From IMG/VR virus record IMGVR_UViG_3300037961_003088, positions 1 to 56,378 of that record: a DNA stretch of 56,378 bases; one strand, given 5' to 3'. Source of the DNA: a virus. Its lineage: Duplodnaviria > Caudoviricetes. Shown here piece after piece: positions 4,101 through 49,030 of this stretch (positions within the stretch are counted from its first letter, which is position 1; each line of letters opens with the position of its first letter). The notes under the pieces were generated by a model. The model was not told where the DNA came from, did not search any database, and worked only from the letters and a program-made list of their open reading frames with translations. Made by a program: the position numbers and the translations under genes.

Positions 4101-7100
4101 TGGAGGATCTAGTGAACCAAGATTACTATACCTTTTAGCTTTCTTATACGTACCAAATGCACCAACTAACTGTTGTAAACCTAAAGTTCCTCCAGCATAT
4201 TTAGATAGTGTTAAAGCTTCACTTAAAATTAAAAAATTAGAAAAAACATTTTTAGTATCGACAGGGATATTTAAGAGTTGTGAAATTTCTTTTACAAATT
4301 CACTTAAAAAATTCTCTTCAGAAATTGGAAGAGGTTGTTCTAATTTTATTTCTTTTAATAAACCCTGAAAACCTCTATTAGTTAGACCAACAGCTAAAAA
4401 TTCTTGAACATTACTGCCATTAAAACCTTTTGATAAAACAAATCTTCTGTCATGAATTTGTACAGATTCTTCAAGTAAATCTTCATTAGATAATGTTCTT
4501 TTTCTTTCTTTTAACAGCATTTCATAATGACCACGATTATCCATATCGACTTTTCTTCTTGGACTAACAGTAATAAGTTGATTAAATGTTCCGCTTATAC
4601 CATACATAGTTTCAAGACTTTGCTGTTCTACTTTTCTAGCTAAATCTAAATCAGGTTTTTGTTTTCTAAATGCTGTAATTCCTGGCTGTACAAAAGGTTT
4701 ACTTCTAGATTTTTTTTCCATTCTAATGTCTCCATTTGGAAGAACATCAGAAACTTTTTCTTGTGATACTAATAAAGCTAAAGGTGTTAGATCAACATTT
4801 ATCGCAATAGGTATTTCTTTACCTGTATAATTAAATTTATCACGTTTAAAACCCTCTTTTAAAATTTTATCTATATACTTATCAGTAAATTCTTCAGGAT
4901 TAAATCTTTGTGCAACTGCTAATATTTGTTCTACTTCTTGACGTCTTTTATAAAATAATCTGCCACTTTCAAGTAATCTTGCTTTTACTCTGCTATTAAA
5001 TTTTCCAGTTTTATAAAAAATAACTGCTTGATCTTGCAATTTTTCAAAAACTTCCAGTTTAACATTTTCATTTTGTATCATATTAAAAGCAAACATTAAT
5101 TCTGAAATTTCTTGTTTTGTTTTAACTTCTAAAGTTTGTAAAGCATAATGAGAAATAATTTCAACTGGACTAACATTTTCTAAAATAGCTGCTAATGTAT
5201 TTAGAGAAGGTAGAACATTTTCATTAGCATTATTTAATAAATAACTTAATTCTCCTTTTTTTATAGATTTTTGTATTTTTAATAATTGATCGGTAGATTT
5301 TTTTAAATTTTGTTCTGCAGCTATTTTTTGTCTTAGATCATCCTTAACTCCTTTAAATCTTTCAAGAACACCAGTAAAATATTGTGTTTTTTTACCTATA
5401 TCATTTGGATTTATATTTTCTCCAGTGCTTTGTTCAGTAACATTTATAAAATCAACAAGAACTTTGTTACGACCACCTTTTATATTTAATTTTTCAAGAA
5501 ATTTTAAATTAACTCTTCCTCTATCTGCAGTAAAATACTTTATAAAATCTTTAGCTACTTTTGGTTTTAAACCCTCACTTTTTTCATTAGTTTCAAATAT
5601 ATTATTATTGCCAACTTTTTTTATAATGCCTGTCTTTAGCATATATTCATGAATCTCTTTCATAGAAGATATAGCTGCATTCATACTAGAAGTTGAACCC
5701 TGTGTAGCTAAATGCACTAATTCATGTAAAATTATTTCATAATTTACAGCGTCAGATTTAAATGCAAGATCATTAATATATAATCTAAAACCTGAATAAG
5801 CTTCTGTTAATTCTTCAAATCTAGAAGCAAATTTTTGATTACTTTTTGTTCTTTGTATTTCTGCTGCTAAAGAATTTTTTGAAGCAGGACCTGCTACAAA
5901 ACCAAGTGAACGCCCTTTTCCATAGTGTTGGTTATCGAATAATGGTAAAACATCATTGTTATCTTTTATAACTGTAAAAGATGTTTTTACACCTATTTTG
6001 TTAAATTGTTCTAATCTATCAACTATTTTTTTAGCTATGATTCTATAGTCTTTACTAGGAGCATTCTTAAATAAAATTTGAGCTACTTCTAAAGGAGTTT
6101 TATTAACTATATTATCCATTAAATATTTATAGTCTTGATCTTTTTGCTTATCAGTTAATTTTAAAAGATTATATATTCCACCTTTTAAACGAGGTTTTAT
6201 TTCCTCTAATGTCATATCAGGAGTAATTTCCGTAACCTGACCTATAGGCGAAACTTGCCCCCTATTAACTCTCCTACTGGTTTCTTGCTCTATTTCTGTT
6301 TTTAATAGAGGTTCATCTTCTACAGGTTTTTCTTCTGTTGTTTCTAAAGTTTCATCTATTTCTAAAATTGGTCTTAATTCATCATCTAGCCTTAATCTAT
6401 CTAACTCCTTAGTTGTTCTTATTTCACCTCTTTCTCTAGCACCTAATTTTCCTTCCTCTATAATAGAAAAAATTTCTGAAGCTCTTTTCATACCTGAACG
6501 TTTTACAGCTTTGCCTAGTAAATCAAAAAATTGTTCTACTTTGCCAAAAATACTTTCTGCTTTTGGAGCTACATCTGCAGGTGAAAACCTAGATTTATAT
6601 AAATCTGCTATGGCACTTTCTACATACATTTCTTCTAAAGCGTCTTTACCTGCTCCATAAGCTTGCATTTCTGCAGCTTTATTAGAATTTTTACGCAAAG
6701 AACGTTGATAATAACTAATACCTGCATTATTTTTATCAAAAGATAATGGAACTTTTGCTCTTCTTATGTAATTTCTAAAAAATTGATATTCTTTTTCAGT
6801 AAATAAATCTTTCTCTCTAAGAGCCTCTATAACATTACCATCTACTATTTTATTAATTCTTTGTTGTATTTCTAAATCACTAGCTGTGCCATCAGGATTT
6901 ATAGCATTTAAAGATACAAAAATTATATCTGTATTTTTATCGTATTCTCCTTTTATATTTTTAGCCTGTTCAGGATCACGAACTATAGTGCCATCTTCTT
7001 TTTCTACTAAAGTTCTTGTAGACAATAATTCATCAGATATAACAATGCCAGTTTCTCTCAAACCAACCACGTCTAACATTTTTCTTACTTCTTTAGCAAA

Positions 7101-41502: not shown

Positions 41503-41560
41503 ATGTGCAATTTATGTGGCGGTAGATTGTTGTCATTAATGCCAAAACAATGGAGGACTT

Positions 41561-41857
41561 ATGTCTAGAAAAGAATTAAGCGATAAAGCTCTTAGAAGTA
41601 TGATTGAAGAGTTTAATAAATACAGTAGTGCAGATAACAAGTTTCTTGATGAAACTCTATCCGAATTTCTTTTTAAGAAGTTTGAGGAAATCATGTTAGT
41701 GCAAAAGTGTCCGAGTGTACTCAGTGACGAAGAGAAAAAAGAGTACCGCAGAATTGTAGAAGATACCGCAAAATTTATAAGCGGTCTGAGAATGCGACAA
41801 GCTTGGGATATTTTAAAAAGCATGGAGAATGCTGAGGAGGTTCAAAGTAATGATTGA
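41561..41857 (+). CDS. Hypothetical early protein
   Basis: GGAGG RBS; first gene of the + arm. Confidence 0.7.
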   Translation: MSRKELSDKALRSMIEEFNKYSSADNKFLDETLSEFLFKKFEEIMLVQKCPSVLSDEEKKEYRRIVEDTAKFISGLRMRQAWDILKSMENAEEVQSND

Positions 41858-42095
41858 AGACACTTGGACTTGTCACATTTGTGGCTTGCCTTATTGCTCA
41901 GGGTTTGGAAATAATCCTGAGCCATTTGGTGAGTACGAGCAAAGATGTTGTGACGACTGCAACGAAAAAGTTGTAATCCCTATAAGAATTTTAAGTATGT
42001 CCGAAAAGGCAGAAAGTAGAGCAAAAGCAAAATCATTTTATGACTTGATTATGAAAAGGATTGAAAAGAGATTGCAAAAGGAGGAGGGCAAGTAA
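41850..42095 (+). CDS. Small Zn-binding protein
   Basis: CHICG...GNNPEP...CCDDCN..VVIP.R; GAGGAGG RBS. Confidence 0.75.
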   Translation: MIEDTWTCHICGLPYCSGFGNNPEPFGEYEQRCCDDCNEKVVIPIRILSMSEKAESRAKAKSFYDLIMKRIEKRLQKEEGK

Positions 42096-42463
42096 TGGAT
42101 TTTCCTAGTCAAGAACAGATAGAAGCTTTTGAACGTCACGAAGAATTTGTTAAGCAAAGAGATAGAGAGTTCGCAGAAGCAAAAGAAAATATATATTTTC
42201 GACTTGCTGGACATGATAAATATTACAATGCTTTTAATTGCAAAAAATTTGAAGATAACGTCAAAATGTTTGGCTTTGATCATATAGCAACTGCGGAAGA
42301 AGTGCAGAAGCAGGGATTAATATTTAGCAAATATGCAATTAGTCTTGGTGATGTTCATGGACACGATTTAAGAAGGTTTAACAGTAAGGAAGAATTACTG
42401 GGTTTTGTAGCTGGGTGTAATCACACCTATAACCAAATGCGACTAGTGAAAAAACTAGTCTAA
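42095..42463 (+). CDS. Hypothetical early protein
   Basis: Coupled (TAATG), GGAGG RBS. Confidence 0.7.
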   Translation: MDFPSQEQIEAFERHEEFVKQRDREFAEAKENIYFRLAGHDKYYNAFNCKKFEDNVKMFGFDHIATAEEVQKQGLIFSKYAISLGDVHGHDLRRFNSKEELLGFVAGCNHTYNQMRLVKKLV

Positions 42464-42474
42464 GGATCTTAAAG

Positions 42475-42503
42475 ATAGCCACGTTAATCGTGGCTATTTT
42501 TTT
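42475..42503 (+). terminator. Rho-independent terminator
   Basis: ATAGCCACG-TTAAT-CGTGGCTAT followed by T6. Confidence 0.85.
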
Positions 42504-42526
42504 ACCTAATAAAAGGATTTGAACGA

Positions 42527-42859
42527 ATGACAGATAAGAAAGAATTATCGCAAGATGAAGCAACTTTTAGGACGCTTGTAATTGTTAATGCAGAAGACAT
42601 AGGCAGAGATTATAGGCTTATGACTAAAGAGCAAATTGATGAAACAGTTGTTCATTATGGTTTCAATAAAAGACAGATAAGAGCATATATTATTTTACTA
42701 GAGGAAAAAGACAGACTGGTTAAGGTTTCAAAATTAAGAGTACTAAAAGAAGCTCAAACTAAATATGACGAGAAACAAGAAGAAAACATTGATTATGATC
42801 TGGTTGATTTTGTTCTTGAAGCTAAAACAAAATTTAAATATATCTATAAAATTTATTGA
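42527..42859 (+). CDS. Hypothetical protein
   Basis: 110-aa ORF with AAGGA RBS. Confidence 0.6.
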   Translation: MTDKKELSQDEATFRTLVIVNAEDIGRDYRLMTKEQIDETVVHYGFNKRQIRAYIILLEEKDRLVKVSKLRVLKEAQTKYDEKQEENIDYDLVDFVLEAKTKFKYIYKIY

Positions 42860-42987
42860 TCTAAAGCTTAAAAGCTTTACTGATGAAAGTGTAAACTTAT
42901 TAACATACTTATCGCTTGATAGTCTGTTGATGGTCTATGAAGACCGAAATCAGTAAATTTTAACATTTAAAAAAATGGAGGTTTTAA

Positions 42988-44076
42988 ATGAGTGTTAATC
43001 CAAAATTAGCTAAACAGCTAATGTCGAAAATTTTAGAAGGTGGCAATGTGCCATTTCTATTAGGTGGAACTGGAGTTGGTAAATCTGCTCTAGTTTTTGA
43101 AGTTGCTCAGGACTTAGCAAATGGTCGTGAGATAGTTGTAGATAATGTTAAACCAAATAAGGAGGAATTTGGTTTCATTGATTTTAGACTTTCGCTTTAT
43201 GAAAGTATTGATCTTGGCGGTTTACCCTATATTGATCTTAAAAGTAACCAACAATGTAGAGCTTTTTTAGGTAACTTGCCTGTAGCTAACGAAGGTTTGT
43301 TGTTTTTAGATGAATTTGCTCAGGCTCATAGTTCTGTTCAGGCGGTATGTGGACAGTTGCTATACGACAGAAGACTTGGTGAATATAAGTTTCCTGATGG
43401 ATGGCATATTGTTTGTGCTGGTAACAGAGCAAGCGATAGGGCTGGTTCTACACACTTGCCCTCTATGGTTACACAACGTTGCACAATGATTGACTTTGAA
43501 GCTGATTTTAGTGATTGGCTCGCTTGGGCTTTAGAAAATGATGTTCATGGTTCGGTAACTGGTTTTTTACAGTGGCAAAGTCAGTATTTAAGAAAATTTG
43601 ACAGTAAAGATACAAAGGCACAGCCCTCACCTAGAAGCTGGGTAAGGTTAAGTGACACTATGAAAACTGCTCCCTCAAATAATCTTATACCTAAGTTAGC
43701 TGAGGGTGATGTTGGTGAGGAAGCTTCTTTAGAGTTTACAAACTTTGTAAACATGATTGATGAAGTTCCTAATTTATCTGACATTCTTAGCGGTAAAGAT
43801 GTAGATACTCCTGAAAAAGCTGGAGTTTGTTTTGCAACAGTTGTAGCCCTAGTAAATGCTATTACTAATGAAGCTAAGGGTAATAAAGCTGGCTCTAAGG
43901 ATCTTTATAAGTTCTTTGATCATGCTCTTTCTTATATTCAAAAATTTGCTACTCCTGAATATTCGATATTTTTCGTTAGACAAGTGACAAGCAAAAACGA
44001 AATGCTTAAAGATACAAGTACCTTTAGCAAATTTAAGATCGATAACGTAGATGTAGAGTTTGGAGGTGGTGAATAA
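42988..44076 (+). CDS. MoxR-like AAA+ ATPase
   Basis: Walker A GGTGVGKS, Walker B LLFLDE, AGNR sensor, PSPRSW. Confidence 0.9.
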   Translation: MSVNPKLAKQLMSKILEGGNVPFLLGGTGVGKSALVFEVAQDLANGREIVVDNVKPNKEEFGFIDFRLSLYESIDLGGLPYIDLKSNQQCRAFLGNLPVANEGLLFLDEFAQAHSSVQAVCGQLLYDRRLGEYKFPDGWHIVCAGNRASDRAGSTHLPSMVTQRCTMIDFEADFSDWLAWALENDVHGSVTGFLQWQSQYLRKFDSKDTKAQPSPRSWVRLSDTMKTAPSNNLIPKLAEGDVGEEASLEFTNFVNMIDEVPNLSDILSGKDVDTPEKAGVCFATVVALVNAITNEAKGNKAGSKDLYKFFDHALSYIQKFATPEYSIFFVRQVTSKNEMLKDTSTFSKFKIDNVDVEFGGGE

Positions 44077-44630
44077 TGCCTAAGACAATAACTAAAAAAT
44101 TTACAATTTATGATCTTGAAGATTTAAAAAAAGATAATAAATTGTGCGACAGAATATATGCAGAGTTTTGGCTGGATAGTAGCAACACTAATGCTTGGCT
44201 AGACGAAAATATTAGAAGTTTAGAAGCTTTTGCTAAAACTTTATACATGACATTAAACTACGAACTATCCGATAATCTACATGGTGATTACAGAGATTTT
44301 ATAGTGCTAACACCTAAAGATGATTTCTATGCCTTAGAAAACAAAAACTATAAAAAGTTGTTAAAAAACTATGAGGGTATTGGCTATTATATGTGCGAAG
44401 ACCTAAAAATATTCACCTTAAAACTATTAGATAAAAAAGAATATAAAGTTTTAGATGAAAGTTCTACTAAGAAATTTAAACAAGAAATAGAAAATAGAAT
44501 GTTGAGTATGTGGAGATTAGATAATGCTCACCATTTTTCTAAAGAGAATTTTTTAGAAGTTGTAGAAGGTAACGATTACAAATTTTATGAAGATGGTACT
44601 TTATATAAGGAGAACGAAGATGAGCAATAA
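44076..44630 (+). CDS. Hypothetical protein
   Basis: Coupled ORF; IYDLEDL start and NDYKFYEDG end. Confidence 0.65.
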   Translation: MPKTITKKFTIYDLEDLKKDNKLCDRIYAEFWLDSSNTNAWLDENIRSLEAFAKTLYMTLNYELSDNLHGDYRDFIVLTPKDDFYALENKNYKKLLKNYEGIGYYMCEDLKIFTLKLLDKKEYKVLDESSTKKFKQEIENRMLSMWRLDNAHHFSKENFLEVVEGNDYKFYEDGTLYKENEDEQ

Positions 44631-44952
44631 TTTTAAACCAATACATTTTTACAATCATAGTACCAATGAAAGTTTTCAAATAACTTCAAGGAAAGGATTG
44701 ATAAATTGGATAAACGATTTTACAGAAAATCATAATGCTTTTGATTGCTATGAGGAATTAAAAGAAAGATGTTTAGAGAGAGAGAAGATGAAAGTTAAAG
44801 ACCTTATAAAGACTTTAAAAAAGTTTGACGATAATGATGAAGTAATTTTCTATCATCTAAAAAATCATAATCTTGAAAGTTGTAAATTTGAAAGTGTTAT
44901 AGAAACTGAATTAGGTGTTGAACTAACAATAGAGGGGGTGTCTGATGAGTGA
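44620..44952 (+). CDS. Hypothetical protein, possibly two fused small genes (internal start MKVKDLI at 44788)
   Basis: AAGGAG RBS at the first start; internal purine-rich RBS + ATG. Confidence 0.55.
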   Translation: MSNNFKPIHFYNHSTNESFQITSRKGLINWINDFTENHNAFDCYEELKERCLEREKMKVKDLIKTLKKFDDNDEVIFYHLKNHNLESCKFESVIETELGVELTIEGVSDE

Positions 44953-45964
44953 TATAGGAAATCATTTATCTGAAACCGCCACATTAGTGAGGTTTACTAC
45001 TAAATTTTGGAGTGGAATTAAATCGGATAAATTCTTAGAAAAAAAATTAGTAGAAAGTACTAATTGCGATAAAGGTTCTGTTAATGCACAAAAATATTTA
45101 GTGGGAAAAGAATATGCTAAACATTTCAGGAGCATTATTAATCAAGTTAGAAATGAATATTATTACCCTTTAACTTTAGCTTGGGATGATAATACTCACG
45201 ACAATGATGGAAAGGTAGTAAGTGGCTGGAGATTATGTCCTAACAGAAATTTAGATAAGCTTGTATATGAATTAGATAAAGCTGAGATAAATTTTAAGAA
45301 AGAAGTTAGAGGATTTATCAAAGATTATCCTACTTTGATCTCGGAAGCTAAACAGAAGCTGGGTGAAGCTTTTAATATAGAAGATTATCCACAGCCTGAA
45401 AAACTTGTAACCTATTACACAGATAATGAGGGCAAAGAAAGAATGAGAGGTAAATTTCGTTTTGACGTAAAGTTTAATGAAATACCTAACTGGGCTGAAC
45501 ATAAAGGCAAAGATGTAAGGTTAAATATTTCTAGCTCTGTAATTAACAGAATAAAAAATGACGTTGAAAGCAGAGTTCTAGTTAATAGAAACAATTCTAT
45601 GAAAACTTATTTAAAGGACATAGAAAAGAAAGCCTACGACTTAGCAGAACGTTTAGCTAATTATGATCCTAAAGATAAAAAAAATAGAAGTTTTTTTAAA
45701 AATCAAGGCATTAATACTTTACGTGGGATAGTCCAAGTTCTGCCTAGTATGAATGAAGACGTATTCGGTAATGATGAAACTATTAATGAAATCCATCAAA
45801 AATTAGTTGTTGCTTTAGCTGGCATAGGAAATCCTGAAGAACTGAGGGAGGATAGTGCAACAGCAAAAGAGAAAAGGGCTAATATTAGTACTAAGTTAAA
45901 AAAAGCTGTAGATCCTATTAATCAGGGTTTTATGGATCAATTAGCTGGGGGTGGTAATGACTAA
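44945..45964 (+). CDS. DUF3150-like protein
   Basis: WSG.K.D...K.L...TLAWDD..GWRL.P...FIKDYP...LGEAFN.EDYP pattern; context with AAA and vWA genes. Confidence 0.6.
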   Translation: MSDIGNHLSETATLVRFTTKFWSGIKSDKFLEKKLVESTNCDKGSVNAQKYLVGKEYAKHFRSIINQVRNEYYYPLTLAWDDNTHDNDGKVVSGWRLCPNRNLDKLVYELDKAEINFKKEVRGFIKDYPTLISEAKQKLGEAFNIEDYPQPEKLVTYYTDNEGKERMRGKFRFDVKFNEIPNWAEHKGKDVRLNISSSVINRIKNDVESRVLVNRNNSMKTYLKDIEKKAYDLAERLANYDPKDKKNRSFFKNQGINTLRGIVQVLPSMNEDVFGNDETINEIHQKLVVALAGIGNPEELREDSATAKEKRANISTKLKKAVDPINQGFMDQLAGGGND

Positions 45965-47303
45965 ATATCCAAAGATAGTTCTTTGTCGAGCAAGATTGAT
46001 GAAAGAGAATATAGGTTTGGCAAGTATGTTAATGCCTTTACCATTAATCGAAGACGATACGTTACCTACAATGGCTACAGATGGAACTTGTATAAGATAT
46101 AATCCATCTTTTGTTGAAGAGCATTCTAGTGAGCAAATTCAAGGAGTTTTGATACATGAAGCTTGCCACGTTCTTTTTGAACATCCTTTAAGAAAAGGTA
46201 AAAGAAATCATAAGCTGTGGAACGTTGCTTGCGATTATGCGATAAATAACTACTTAATTTACGACACTGATATTGATCTTGTTGAGGGCGGTATGTGGGA
46301 TATAAAGTATAGAGGTATGAGTGCTGAAAAAATCTACAGCATTTTAGATGAAGATGAAAAAAGTTTTAAAAAGGCTATTGATCAAATGAATAATCAAAGA
46401 AATTTTGATAAAGCTAACAATGATCAATCCTCTAGTCCTGATACTGATGAAGATAATACTGCTGATGATCAAGATAATTCTAAATCTTCAAATAATGAGG
46501 AAGAGAAAAATCTTGGTGATAAGTATGACCAAATTCCTGAAAGTATTGGTGAGGTCTTTACTCCTGTTGATGAAAATGGAAAAGAACTTAGTCATGTAAA
46601 AATGCAAGAAATCAGCGAAGAAATTAAACGTAATGTACATATGGCAGATAAGTATTGTTCAATGGATGGAACTGCTGGATTAACCGAAAGTATTAAAGGA
46701 GATCAATTAAGCAAAATTCGTTGGAATGATCACTTACGAGAAAGTCTTACAAGTATTTTTAAGACTGAAACAAGCTGGAAGTCTTTAAATAGAAGACATC
46801 AATTTAGAGGAATACACTTACCTGCTAGAAATGTCGCTGGTAAAGGTGGTATTGTTGCGATTGCAAACGACACTTCAGGGAGTGTCACTTCGCAAGAATT
46901 AGAATACTATGCCAGCGAAAGCCAAAAAATATTAGAGGATTGTGGTATAGAGAAAGTCTATGTTTGTTATTGCGACAGCACTGTTAGGAAAAATGATAAA
47001 GGTGAGTGGTGGGATATATATGATCTTACTGCTGGAGATACTTTAAATTTTGAGCCTAGAGGTAGAGGAGGTACAAGATTTGAACCAGTATTTAATTTGC
47101 TGGCGGATTACACTGAGCAATTAGATGAAATACAAGCCTTAATATATTTTACAGATGGTTATGCTACTATCAGTCAAGACTACGAGCCTGATTTTCCAGT
47201 ATTTTGGGGAATATCAAGCAATTTAGAAACCGAAGCACTAAGGGAATACATTCCATTCGGAGAATTAATCAAAATTGACAACGAAGATTGTTATAGAGAT
47301 TAA
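45957..47303 (+). CDS. Metallopeptidase-vWA protein (DUF2201-like)
   Basis: TMATDG, LIHEACH (HExxH), WNVACDYAIN; MIDAS DTSGS, GGTRF, FTDG. Confidence 0.9.
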   Translation: MTKYPKIVLCRARLMKENIGLASMLMPLPLIEDDTLPTMATDGTCIRYNPSFVEEHSSEQIQGVLIHEACHVLFEHPLRKGKRNHKLWNVACDYAINNYLIYDTDIDLVEGGMWDIKYRGMSAEKIYSILDEDEKSFKKAIDQMNNQRNFDKANNDQSSSPDTDEDNTADDQDNSKSSNNEEEKNLGDKYDQIPESIGEVFTPVDENGKELSHVKMQEISEEIKRNVHMADKYCSMDGTAGLTESIKGDQLSKIRWNDHLRESLTSIFKTETSWKSLNRRHQFRGIHLPARNVAGKGGIVAIANDTSGSVTSQELEYYASESQKILEDCGIEKVYVCYCDSTVRKNDKGEWWDIYDLTAGDTLNFEPRGRGGTRFEPVFNLLADYTEQLDEIQALIYFTDGYATISQDYEPDFPVFWGISSNLETEALREYIPFGELIKIDNEDCYRD

Positions 47304-47317
47304 TATGCCTTAAATGA

Positions 47318-47345
47318 GTAGAACACTATTTAGGTAGTGTTCTAC
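47318..47345. other. Perfect 11-bp hairpin after the vWA gene
   Basis: GTAGAACACTA-TTTAGG-TAGTGTTCTAC; no U-tract. Confidence 0.7.
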
Positions 47346-47512
47346 CATGCCTTAGACCAAATAAACTCGTTAGAAGCGAAATTAGGAGGTCGAAATTTTA
47401 CAAATTACCAAAATTTAGACATTTATTGATCTAAAAGTATCTTTTGTTGTTTAAAAAACAAATTTTACTTTTTCGCTGGTTCGTTTAGTGATCGTAAAAA
47501 GGGGGGGGGTAA

Positions 47513-47538
47513 GTTTCTCCCACCCTAGAGGGAGAAAC
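47513..47538. other. 9-bp hairpin next to a G9 run
   Basis: GTTTCTCCC-ACCCTAGA-GGGAGAAAC. Confidence 0.65.
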
Positions 47539-47665
47539 GTAAAATATTTTTGATTGTCTTTTAAAAACATAGACTAGTTAATATTTTTAGATGGGGGCGA
47601 AAAAAACACGCAAAACAGTGCAAAAACATATTTTACTTATTAGATATTTTGATAGTCTTAATTAC

Positions 47666-48190
47666 GTCAATACAGAACCTCCATTGTTCTTATGACTTTG
47701 GTAGAGAGTTTGACAAGACTATTTATTACTCATATTAGTGTTATTGTCAGGTAGTAGTTTTTCTTTAACACTATAGAAGTCTGCTTCATTATAAATCCTA
47801 GATTTAATTCGGGGATATGGAGTGACGATAAATCTTGTCATACTCTCCTATCAATCCCCTAAATTATTAGGAACAATTTAGAGGTCTGTTTGGCACTTTA
47901 GTCTTCCTAACAGTATTGATACTGACTGTCAGACGACTTAAAAAGTGCAAGTATCTAGTCTGATTTTTCTCATTTAGCGAGGGGTTTGAACAGACGATAA
48001 ACAACAAAGCCAATATGTGCAGTCCGATTTCCCACACGTGTGGAGGTTTAGATAGACTTAAAACTAAAAGCCACAATTTGCGAGGCAACTGTTTTGCTAG
48101 TTTCAAAGTCTTAAACAAATAAAAAACTAGCTTCGGACTAGTCTAGTCTATATATATCGAGTGACTGTTGATCGACAACTCTCTCAGTTT
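47666..48190 (+). ncRNA. Candidate large structured ncRNA (~520 nt)
   Basis: Extended -10 TGATAGTCT at 47650-47658; consecutive helices including a ~35-bp irregular duplex (47698-47735/47815-47854) and repeated covarying hairpins; G-U pairs favour the + strand. Confidence 0.65.
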
Positions 48191-48231
48191 TGTAAAAGTT
48201 TGATTTTATTTTGTATTTATGTATGATATTT

Positions 48232-48330
48232 GTTAGTAGTTTTAATTTTCCCTATTATTTAAAACTATGTAACTATAATGTCAATAAGTTTTTTCCTATA
48301 TTCATATAAATAGGGTTCAATTCAGAACCT
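48232..48330 (+). ncRNA. Candidate small RNA with pyrimidine-rich loop
   Basis: TTGATT-16-TATGAT promoter (48200-48227); TAGTTTTAA/TTAAAACTA stem with TTTTCCCTATTAT loop; two further hairpins. Confidence 0.4.
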
Positions 48331-48455
48331 TGCAATTACTTTCATAATGAACGTCTATGTGGTTAAAAAAAACGCAGACCAGTAAATATTTTTCTAGCAG
48401 GAGATCCCATGTGTTCGCTGTGAGCTTTTCTGATTCTAAACATAATTAATAGATC

Positions 48456-48495
48456 CACGCTTTATTAAATCTATGCACGCTTTATTAAATCTATG
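48456..48495 (+). repeat. 20-bp perfect tandem repeat x2 (partial third copy at 48574-48588)
   Basis: CACGCTTTATTAAATCTATG twice. Confidence 0.9.
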
Positions 48496-48632
48496 ACTGA
48501 TAAATATTTTTATCTCACCCAAGAACGATTCCAAGACTGTTTAGTAGGTAAAAAAAATTTCAGGTGGTGAAGAGCTTATTAAATCTATAACTAGTAAATA
48601 TTTTTCACGCAGGCGTGCAAGAAATTAGTGCG

Positions 48633-48680
48633 TAATACGAATACTAACACTAATACTAACACTAATACGACTACTGATAC
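48633..48680 (+). repeat. Degenerate hexamer tandem repeat
   Basis: TAATAC/GAATAC/TAACAC/TGATAC-type units, about 8 copies. Confidence 0.75.
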
Positions 48681-48724
48681 GTTAAATATTTCATTATGAT
48701 TGCAAAATGATTTATAATTTTTAA

Positions 48725-49030
48725 ATGTTTGCAGTTGTTAGACATACTTTTGAAATGGACACTGAGGATAAATATGCTTCAGTAGGAGAGTGGAAACATA
48801 ACGTATGGCTGTTTGATACTGAAGAAGAAGCAATGACTTTTGCAGTGACGTTATTAGATAATCCTATACTCTTAGCTAATGCCCATTCCTTAGCTTATGC
48901 TGTAGAAACTTTACGAACAGGAAAGTATTTTCAAGTAGGCAGAGAGAGTGTTGCCATAGGCAAAGTTCAAGACAAAATAAAAGTTATTGTAGAAAACGAG
49001 GATGAAGATGGAAAAAAATTTATTCATTAG
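48725..49030 (+). CDS. Hypothetical protein, probably leaderless
   Basis: TATAAT at 48713-48718 with 6 nt between it and the ATG; no SD. Confidence 0.65.
   Translation: MFAVVRHTFEMDTEDKYASVGEWKHNVWLFDTEEEAMTFAVTLLDNPILLANAHSLAYAVETLRTGKYFQVGRESVAIGKVQDKIKVIVENEDEDGKKFIH

Follow-up and report, generated by a model that had tools for sequence, protein, structure and literature searches.

The question raised by this locus is whether a short CCUCC box, lying in the largest gene-free gap of a phage genome and complementary to Shine–Dalgarno (SD) sequences of the operon just upstream, is the seed of a small RNA directed at that operon. The window analysed here is the whole of the IMG/VR record IMGVR_UViG_3300037961_003088 (56,378 bp; completeness estimate 96%; G+C content about 33%), from a virus of the Caudoviricetes. 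The gap (47304-48724, 1.4 kb) is bordered by the operon on one side and by the open reading frame (ORF) 48725-49030 on the other. We find that the box very probably belongs to a real, conserved phage RNA, and we put the probability that it functions by anti-SD pairing with the neighbouring operon at about one half. The elements concerned are the following.

47678-47682, + strand: the CCUCC box, the core element and the sole + strand CCTCC in the gap
47676-47688, + strand: the 13-mer AACCTCCATTGTT, complementary to two ribosome-binding site (RBS) regions
41546-41556, + strand: RBS region AACAATGGAGG, an 11 nt perfect complement of the box region, 4 nt before the ATG of ORF 41561-41857
42974-42983, + strand: RBS region AATGGAGGTT, a 10 nt perfect complement, 6 nt before the ATG of the AAA ATPase gene 42988-44076
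41836-41843, + strand: GGAGGTTC, the RBS of ORF 41850-42095, an 8 nt complement on the other flank of the box
41561-47303, + strand: the operon upstream of the box and proposed target set, comprising small ORFs, the AAA ATPase gene, a DUF3150-like gene and a DUF2201 metallopeptidase gene with a VWA-like domain

The preliminary description of this DNA, made from the letters of the window, had proposed that the box is displayed in the 5' hairpin loop of a noncoding RNA that represses two early genes in trans by covering their SD sequences. The three sequences that it named (the 13-mer and its two perfect complements of 11 and 10 nt) are all located as stated, and the pairing at the ATPase RBS does extend to 12 bp with one G–U pair when checked by hand on the sequence. 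AATGGAGG occurs three times in the whole genome (both strands), namely at the two RBSs and as the reverse complement of the box, and the flank AUU of the box faces AAT at the RBS. Across the 15 GGAGG RBSs of the window, the perfect matches of the box measure 11, 10, 8, 7, 7, 6, 6 and 5 nt, the last of these eight times.

That the box is part of an RNA gene is seen most clearly in related phages. A query of IMG/VR with the primase collected 64 loci, and each syntenic gap contains exactly one CCTCC on the window-sense strand (the ATPase and VWA proteins as queries returned none and one distant locus, respectively; L003 lacks a comparable gap). The loci were scanned for CCTCC followed by a stable hairpin and a run of at least six T. 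This arrangement was found at the same place and on the same strand as in the window in 41 of the 64 primase-linked loci, and relaxed criteria add L029, L031, L034 and L038. Among 47 close loci (primase identity of at least 59% and at least 1.5 kb of sequence past the primase), 45 carry the small-RNA gene; the exceptions are L052, which has the box but no terminator, and L032, which has no box. Five close loci were too short and were left out of this count, and the same scan gave nothing convincing in 12 distant loci.

The RNA predicted in the relatives is 76-117 nt long. It has a sigma70-like promoter in the + sense (TTGCAA/T, 16-18 nt, TAnnnT) and comprises, in order, a 5' hairpin, (A/U)CCUCCA, a small second hairpin and a GC-rich terminator with U6-9. 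The sequences of the 5' hairpins are unrelated between lineages. On folding the 27 unique RNAs of the relatives, the mean unpaired probability was 0.83 for the box and 0.41 for the whole RNA, and 25 of the 27 were more stable than their own reverse complements (-26.3 versus -19.4 kcal/mol); the terminator helix contains frequent U–G and G–U pairs that become mismatches on the other strand. CCUCC is present in all 41 loci by the search criterion, and an A follows it directly in 39 of them. The terminator helix was all that MAFFT and RNAalifold recovered from 19 of the 27 unique short RNAs, the other hairpins having no sequence in common. No Rfam matches were obtained in five of the relatives' loci. 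We conclude that the small RNA of the relatives is an undescribed family, and the near invariance of the box and its predicted single-stranded state bear out the earlier suggestion that it forms part of a noncoding RNA. A further recurrent element is UUCAU, which stands in or beside the 5' hairpin loop, within 30 nt 5' of the box, in 26 of the 41 loci (16 of the 27 unique RNAs). Many operon genes begin with AUGAA, to which this element is complementary; the RNA might thus clamp the start codon as well as the SD sequence.

To relate the box to the operon, eleven whole genomes were restored and the box in each was compared with the RBSs. All 11 have an own-genome match of 8-15 nt between the box and the operon just upstream. 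In G007 the box CCUCCAUUG faces the RBS CAATGGAGG over 15 nt in all (P of about 0.001), and in G006 the box CCUCCAAAG faces the RBS CTTTGGAGG at the counterpart gene over 10 nt. The genes just upstream of the ATPase gene in these two genomes are read here as probable counterparts of ORF 41850-42095 on the basis of the first three codons ATGATTGAA and the 3' flank of the RBS, which are held in common, and the changes between the two box–RBS pairs are compensatory. In the large CCUCCAAG clade the box faces CTTGGAGG at 5-7 operon genes, and in G001 and G006 the box AUUACCUCC faces GGAGGTAAT at the ATPase gene.

Seeds were then permuted among 18 seed-class representatives, a procedure that leaves shared ancestry in the statistics. 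Matches of at least 8 nt were found at 49 of 151 RBSs, compared with 28.0 ± 5.3 after shuffling (p of about 1e-4), and matches of at least 9 nt at 22, compared with 14.1 ± 4.2 (p of about 0.05). With the comparison limited to the ATPase RBS, 16 unique combinations gave a diagonal sum of 135, compared with 119.6 ± 4.5 (p of about 0.001). The co-variation of loop and target that the preliminary description had named as a check appears as a tendency of the flanks to match lineage by lineage, with counter-examples that are given below.

The operon is also distinguished by the base that precedes its SD sequences. T occupies position -1 in 55 of the 76 GGAGG RBSs within 7.5 kb upstream of the box, compared with 19 of 96 elsewhere (Fisher 3e-12, with kinship ignored), and the same trend is seen in all 11 genomes; outside the operon A dominates at this position (65 of 96). 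The RBSs of the ATPase genes read TGGAGG in 22 of 22 cases. The tail of 16S rRNA is CCUCCU, and a U before GGAGG would add a pair with the small RNA and not with the ribosome.

These patterns suggest a mechanism in which box 47678-82 would be the window copy of a conserved phage small-RNA seed. In the relatives, an RNA with its own promoter and intrinsic terminator would present (A/U)CCUCCA single-stranded between two hairpins. The box would copy the anti-SD core of 16S rRNA but with an A following it, and this A should give the best pairing with UGGAGG-type RBSs, which are concentrated in the AAA-ATPase/metallopeptidase-VWA operon. Pairing would occlude the RBSs and lower translation of the whole operon. 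The window RNA would be of a long form, in which the box leads into conserved structured modules and lies at or near one end of a stable RNA, not in a hairpin loop. Pairing in vivo, repression and its timing are inferred from these sequence patterns. What stands of the proposed trans-acting anti-SD repressor is a conserved unpaired box, complementary flanks and the UGGAGG sites of the operon; the display in a loop and the restriction to two targets are not supported.

The window copy itself was examined through the following features.

47666-47696, + strand: the proposed hairpin with loop CUCCAUU, which is weak and whose 5' arm is missing from the RNA contigs
47679-48022, strand not readable from the contigs: RNA contig cover from four metatranscriptome runs
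47868-47883, + strand: internal partner of the box, predicted to pair with 47679-47692 (the box and its 3' flank)
47650-47658, + strand: TGATAGTCT, a possible extended -10 element; the TTGCAA-17-TAnnnT promoter of the family is not clearly present

Six metatranscriptome runs contain about one tenth of the words of the gap, and four of these, possibly from one campaign, were aligned as contigs to 47300-48724. Each run gave one contig of 290-318 nt at a depth of 10-12, in which 47678/79-47774 is joined to 47828-48019/22; relative to the window, 53 nt (47775-47827) are skipped, one base is substituted and one T is inserted. This skip may reflect a deletion in a variant genome or have arisen at the RNA level. 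In these four runs there was no contig cover on 47300-47677 or on 48132-48724, gaps that are not evidence of absence, and 3' of 48022 there were just low-depth, partly matching contigs on 48078-48131 (two runs). All four contigs stop at 47678/79, inside the box, without a loose end; after 48019 one contig passes into adapter sequence, and another extends 26 nt further into module-like sequence. The shared end at 47678/79 hints, though weakly, at a genuine end of the RNA.

The contigs confirm that there is a noncoding RNA at this spot. They speak against a box displayed in a 5' hairpin loop: as they end inside the box, the 5' arm 47666-77 of the proposed hairpin is not part of that RNA, and if the window RNA is of + sense, as we infer, the box would be 5'-terminal. 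The 35 nt hairpin with loop CUCCAUU has a predicted energy of -6.2 kcal/mol (z -2.3; 5 of 200 shuffles are equally stable), and the contig form is predicted to pair the box with 47868-83 instead. MAFFT alignment of the window with L052 and L004 aligned the modules, not the box region. Local alignment of 47660-47730 gave weak homology to L005 and L004 (3 and 10 of 300 shuffles, respectively, were as good) and none to L052, L017, L012 or L043. The window box is the sole + strand CCTCC of a homologous gap and is therefore taken as the counterpart of the box in the relatives. Database and pattern searches added no other assignment: Rfam covariance models gave no match at the gathering score in the window and three chance-level matches at E <= 10 in 47250-48800, blastn of the gap against 50,697 GenBank phages gave no match, a tRNA/tmRNA scan found none, and generic promoter and terminator scans of the gap showed no excess over shuffles.

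Several results weigh against anti-SD pairing with the operon. In the window by itself the match is marginal, barely above chance: random flanks matched to the composition of the gap give P = 0.058 for a best match of at least 11 nt and P = 0.017 for two of at least 10 nt, and in a pseudo-seed test 4 of the 52 CCTCC sites of the genome, the real box included, score equally well. That the two early genes singled out are exclusive targets is not supported, as RNAduplex energies place them third and fourth of 76 translation-initiation regions. The ranking of RBSs puts both sites near the top, and 7 of the best 8 energies fall within 41561-45964, in the same operon, but neither site is uniquely best and the ranking mostly tracks SD strength, measured as pairing to a generic anti-SD (r = 0.67 for the 76 regions). 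Among the relatives, several seed classes come from one CTT/AAG clade and the permutation statistics ignore kinship; P values per genome are mostly 0.05-0.6. L010 and L047 carry CCUCCG and match their own ATPase RBS over only 5 nt, L025 and L053 match theirs over 7 nt, and an ATPase RBS is often fitted equally well, or better, by the seed of another lineage. RNAduplex runs of a 44 nt part of the RNA against the 140-203 crude ORF starts per genome were noisy, with big internal loops and many spurious ORFs, and are used qualitatively. As regards the window RNA, the contigs are strandless, all of the RNA runs may stem from one campaign, and the promoter and terminator of the family are not evident. 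Folding is at least as good for the minus strand of this region as for the plus strand (z -4.4 versus -2.8).

The fold of the contig form leads to a rival, purely structural reading, in which the box and its 3' flank make up the basal helix of a stable noncoding RNA that acts elsewhere, for example through the conserved modules, and the fit to two RBSs is a by-product of any CCUCC matching any GGAGG in an A/T-rich genome. The minimum free energy structure and the partition function both pair 47679-47692 with 47868-47883 in a 10 bp and a 3 bp helix, and the full-length fold agrees; the first 12 nt of the contig form have an unpaired probability of at most 0.09, except for one bulged C. The start of the RNA contigs coincides exactly with the start of this helix, the marginal statistics of the window are as this reading would have them, and in G007 too the box adjoins a GAGG with which it can pair. 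The long-range helix is, however, predicted on one sequence and has no covariation support, and in the 27 short-form relatives the box is unpaired between hairpins and yet is the most conserved element. The structural reading also leaves the lineage-specific flank matches and the operon-specific UGGAGG unexplained, and we regard it as possible but rather unlikely. It is improbable that the small RNA uses the box on host mRNAs, or that the box imitates the 16S 3' tail and so titrates a protein or nuclease. Such a role would suit a box that is the core of the rRNA anti-SD, flank matches that per genome are often just 8 nt and seeds that often fit equally well when they are not a genome's own; against it, the enrichment of UGGAGG is confined to the operon beside the RNA gene, and the matches of 15 nt and 10-11 nt in G007, G006, G001 and the window fall on operon genes.

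The remaining rival places the function on the minus strand, where the GGAGG at 47682-47678 would be the RBS of an ORF that is very short or has decayed. In 27 of the 41 loci the box is preceded, at 3-14 nt, by a CAT, which is an ATG at SD spacing on the other strand, and the good fold of that strand in the window would also fit. The ORFs that follow the minus-strand GGAGG are, however, anything from 2 to 102 codons long, and 4 of 23 loci have no start at all. The preliminary description had allowed only ORFs of 2-5 codons here; in the window there is indeed a 2-codon ORF from TTG, but there are also ORFs of 9 and 12 codons from ATT. No conserved ORF was found after the minus-strand GGAGG in the relatives' loci or in the window. 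The U-tract after the terminator hairpin exists in the + sense only, as does the small-RNA promoter of the relatives, and the G–U pairs favour the stability of the + sense in the 25 of 27 RNAs noted above. The minus-strand GGAGG is not a gene start, and a functional minus strand is very improbable. The sole nearby minus-strand ORF (47719-47841, 40 codons) has GGAGAG 2 nt before its ATG and lies within a long inverted repeat (47704-31/47820-47); the 53 nt variant of the RNA contigs breaks its frame, so it is probably not coding.

Anti-SD pairing with the operon can be given a more specific form, which we put forward tentatively as a private anti-SD: a CCUCCA RNA and a UGGAGG dialect of one operon, by which the whole gene set could be turned off while AGGAGG sites are spared. 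The flanks would co-evolve, and the long forms would mask the box in a helix until 5' processing. We know of almost no regulatory RNAs of uncultured marine phages. Here, a sequence hint from one window has led to an RNA gene with conserved copies in dozens of related uncultured marine phages, seen in metatranscriptomes and absent from Rfam, and the target rule, CCUCCA against UGGAGG, is simple. If true, this would be a compact means for a phage to time a whole early operon, a natural case of control that is specific for an SD dialect and a handle on the poorly understood AAA/VWA module.

The gap and its surroundings contain further elements, as follows.

47898-48133, + strand: structured modules 3' of the box, the sole part of the gap found in relatives by blastn/nhmmer
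Around 5100-5450, in the module-bearing relatives: L022, L012, L018, L009, L015, L011, L014, L023, L008 and L017
47575-86, 48380-91, 48592-603 and 49437-48, + strand, and 372-383 and 56087-98, - strand: the motif (A)CYRGTWAATATTT(TT) in the window
47651-58 and 42918-25, + strand: GATAGTCT, the first copy some 20 nt ahead of the box and the second some 50 nt ahead of the ATPase RBS; four more copies are on the - strand

The modules are of the type GACTGATTTTT..GCGAGG..GTCGATAAA, repeated in a copy number that varies, and the RNA contig cover beginning at the box extends over them as far as about 48022. They lie in the same gap, as part of the noncoding RNA, in the window, L004 and L052; in about ten other relatives they make up a 5' leader of 200-400 nt, with a TTGACA-type promoter before it and a gene starting MTTLDEKE after it. 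A minus-strand hairpin at 48117-48145 (ACTAG..CTAGT, then T6ATTT), directed into the modules from their right side, resembles an intrinsic terminator and has no minus-strand gene upstream. At 47501-47538, about 200 nt beyond the stop codon of the VWA gene, there is a G9 run and, after it, a GC-containing hairpin of 9 bp (GTTTCTCCC/GGGAGAAAC), which may be the terminator of the operon; the G9 homopolymer is a possible spot for an assembly error.

Three repeated motifs were also noted. (A)CYRGTWAATATTT(TT) has 20 matches with at most one mismatch, compared with 9.7 expected, and is clustered in the gap; it recurs before genes in the relatives and, in the short-form relatives, stands in inverted orientation immediately before the promoter of the small RNA. 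We take it as probably a phage-specific site, either a promoter or the target of a regulator. Directly 5' of the small-RNA promoter, many relatives have two to four TGTGGATAA-like repeats (L012 8930-8990, L043, L048), which we take to be DnaA-box-like and which could mark a replication origin or DnaA-controlled transcription of the small RNA. A DnaA-box cluster in the gap of the window was considered and rejected, there being none in the gap and 17 matches genome-wide compared with 17.7 expected. GATAGTCT has six copies compared with 1.9 expected (2 of 100 shuffles reach six) and is repeated after the small-RNA terminator in the relatives.

The genes provide some context for the phage. The AAA ATPase (362 amino acids) matches phrog_1297 at 5.6e-73, and its Pfam AAA_5 score is just below the cut-off; ORF 41561-41857 (98 amino acids) matched no family. 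The large terminase is about 54-59% identical to those of the Pelagibacter phages HTVC027P and HTVC023P and two uncultured phages. The primase/helicase of the window was not found in the isolates with a related terminase, and the pelagiphage link, which rested on terminases of this identity, was dropped as an indication of the host.

Pairing of a C-rich unpaired motif with the SD sequences of several mRNAs is familiar from RsaE/RoxS and RNAIII of Firmicutes. Those RNAs have UCCC or CCCC in loops, are host-encoded, govern metabolic or virulence regulons and are unrelated in sequence to the present RNA. Among bacterial RNAs the cuckoo RNAs (RSs0680 of Rhodobacter sphaeroides and the C14/A6 type of Sinorhizobium meliloti) are closer: only an anti-SD-like C/U-rich motif is conserved, the stems vary through compensatory changes and RBS occlusion is the proposed mode of action (PMC4615179). 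They are, however, chromosomal and carry CCUCCUCCC in the loops of 2-4 adjacent hairpins (PMC4615179), whereas the present RNA is phage-encoded, adjoins its presumed target operon and has a single CCUCCA, not CCUCCUCCC, in a linker between hairpins (in the window, at the RNA end or in a weak loop).

Phages are known to encode trans-acting base-pairing RNAs, such as AsxR and AgvB of the prophages of enterohaemorrhagic Escherichia coli (EHEC) and the phage RNA of bioRxiv 10.1101/2024.10.31.621285. These act through specific seeds on small RNAs or mRNAs of the host, and the titles and abstracts of the reports describe no anti-SD box for an operon of the phage itself. A literature search that left supplements aside found nothing on small RNAs of pelagiphage-like phages or on phage anti-SD small RNAs, and titles and abstracts that combine CCUCC with small RNAs concern host-encoded families only. 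The c4 RNA of P1/P7 is a phage small RNA that binds around the RBS of a phage operon and blocks its translation (PMC12197685). Related phages differ in its specificity, changes in the RNA being matched by changes in the target (PMC12197685; the heteroimmunity of P1 and P7 is in part general knowledge). The present RNA is similarly phage-encoded and complementary to RBSs of a phage operon, the pairing here being predicted. It differs in that the c4 seeds are loop sequences for one target, whereas here a generic SD core is used, and in that c4 is processed from the leader of the operon that it controls, whereas the present RNA has a promoter of its own, which lies downstream of the operon; the two showed no relation in sequence or in Rfam. 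The nearest phage example by mechanism is c4 and the nearest by type of seed are the cuckoo RNAs. The present RNA is a member of neither: it has another motif, in another number and at other places, and is matched by no covariance model. It may well represent a new family of RBS-occluding small RNAs.

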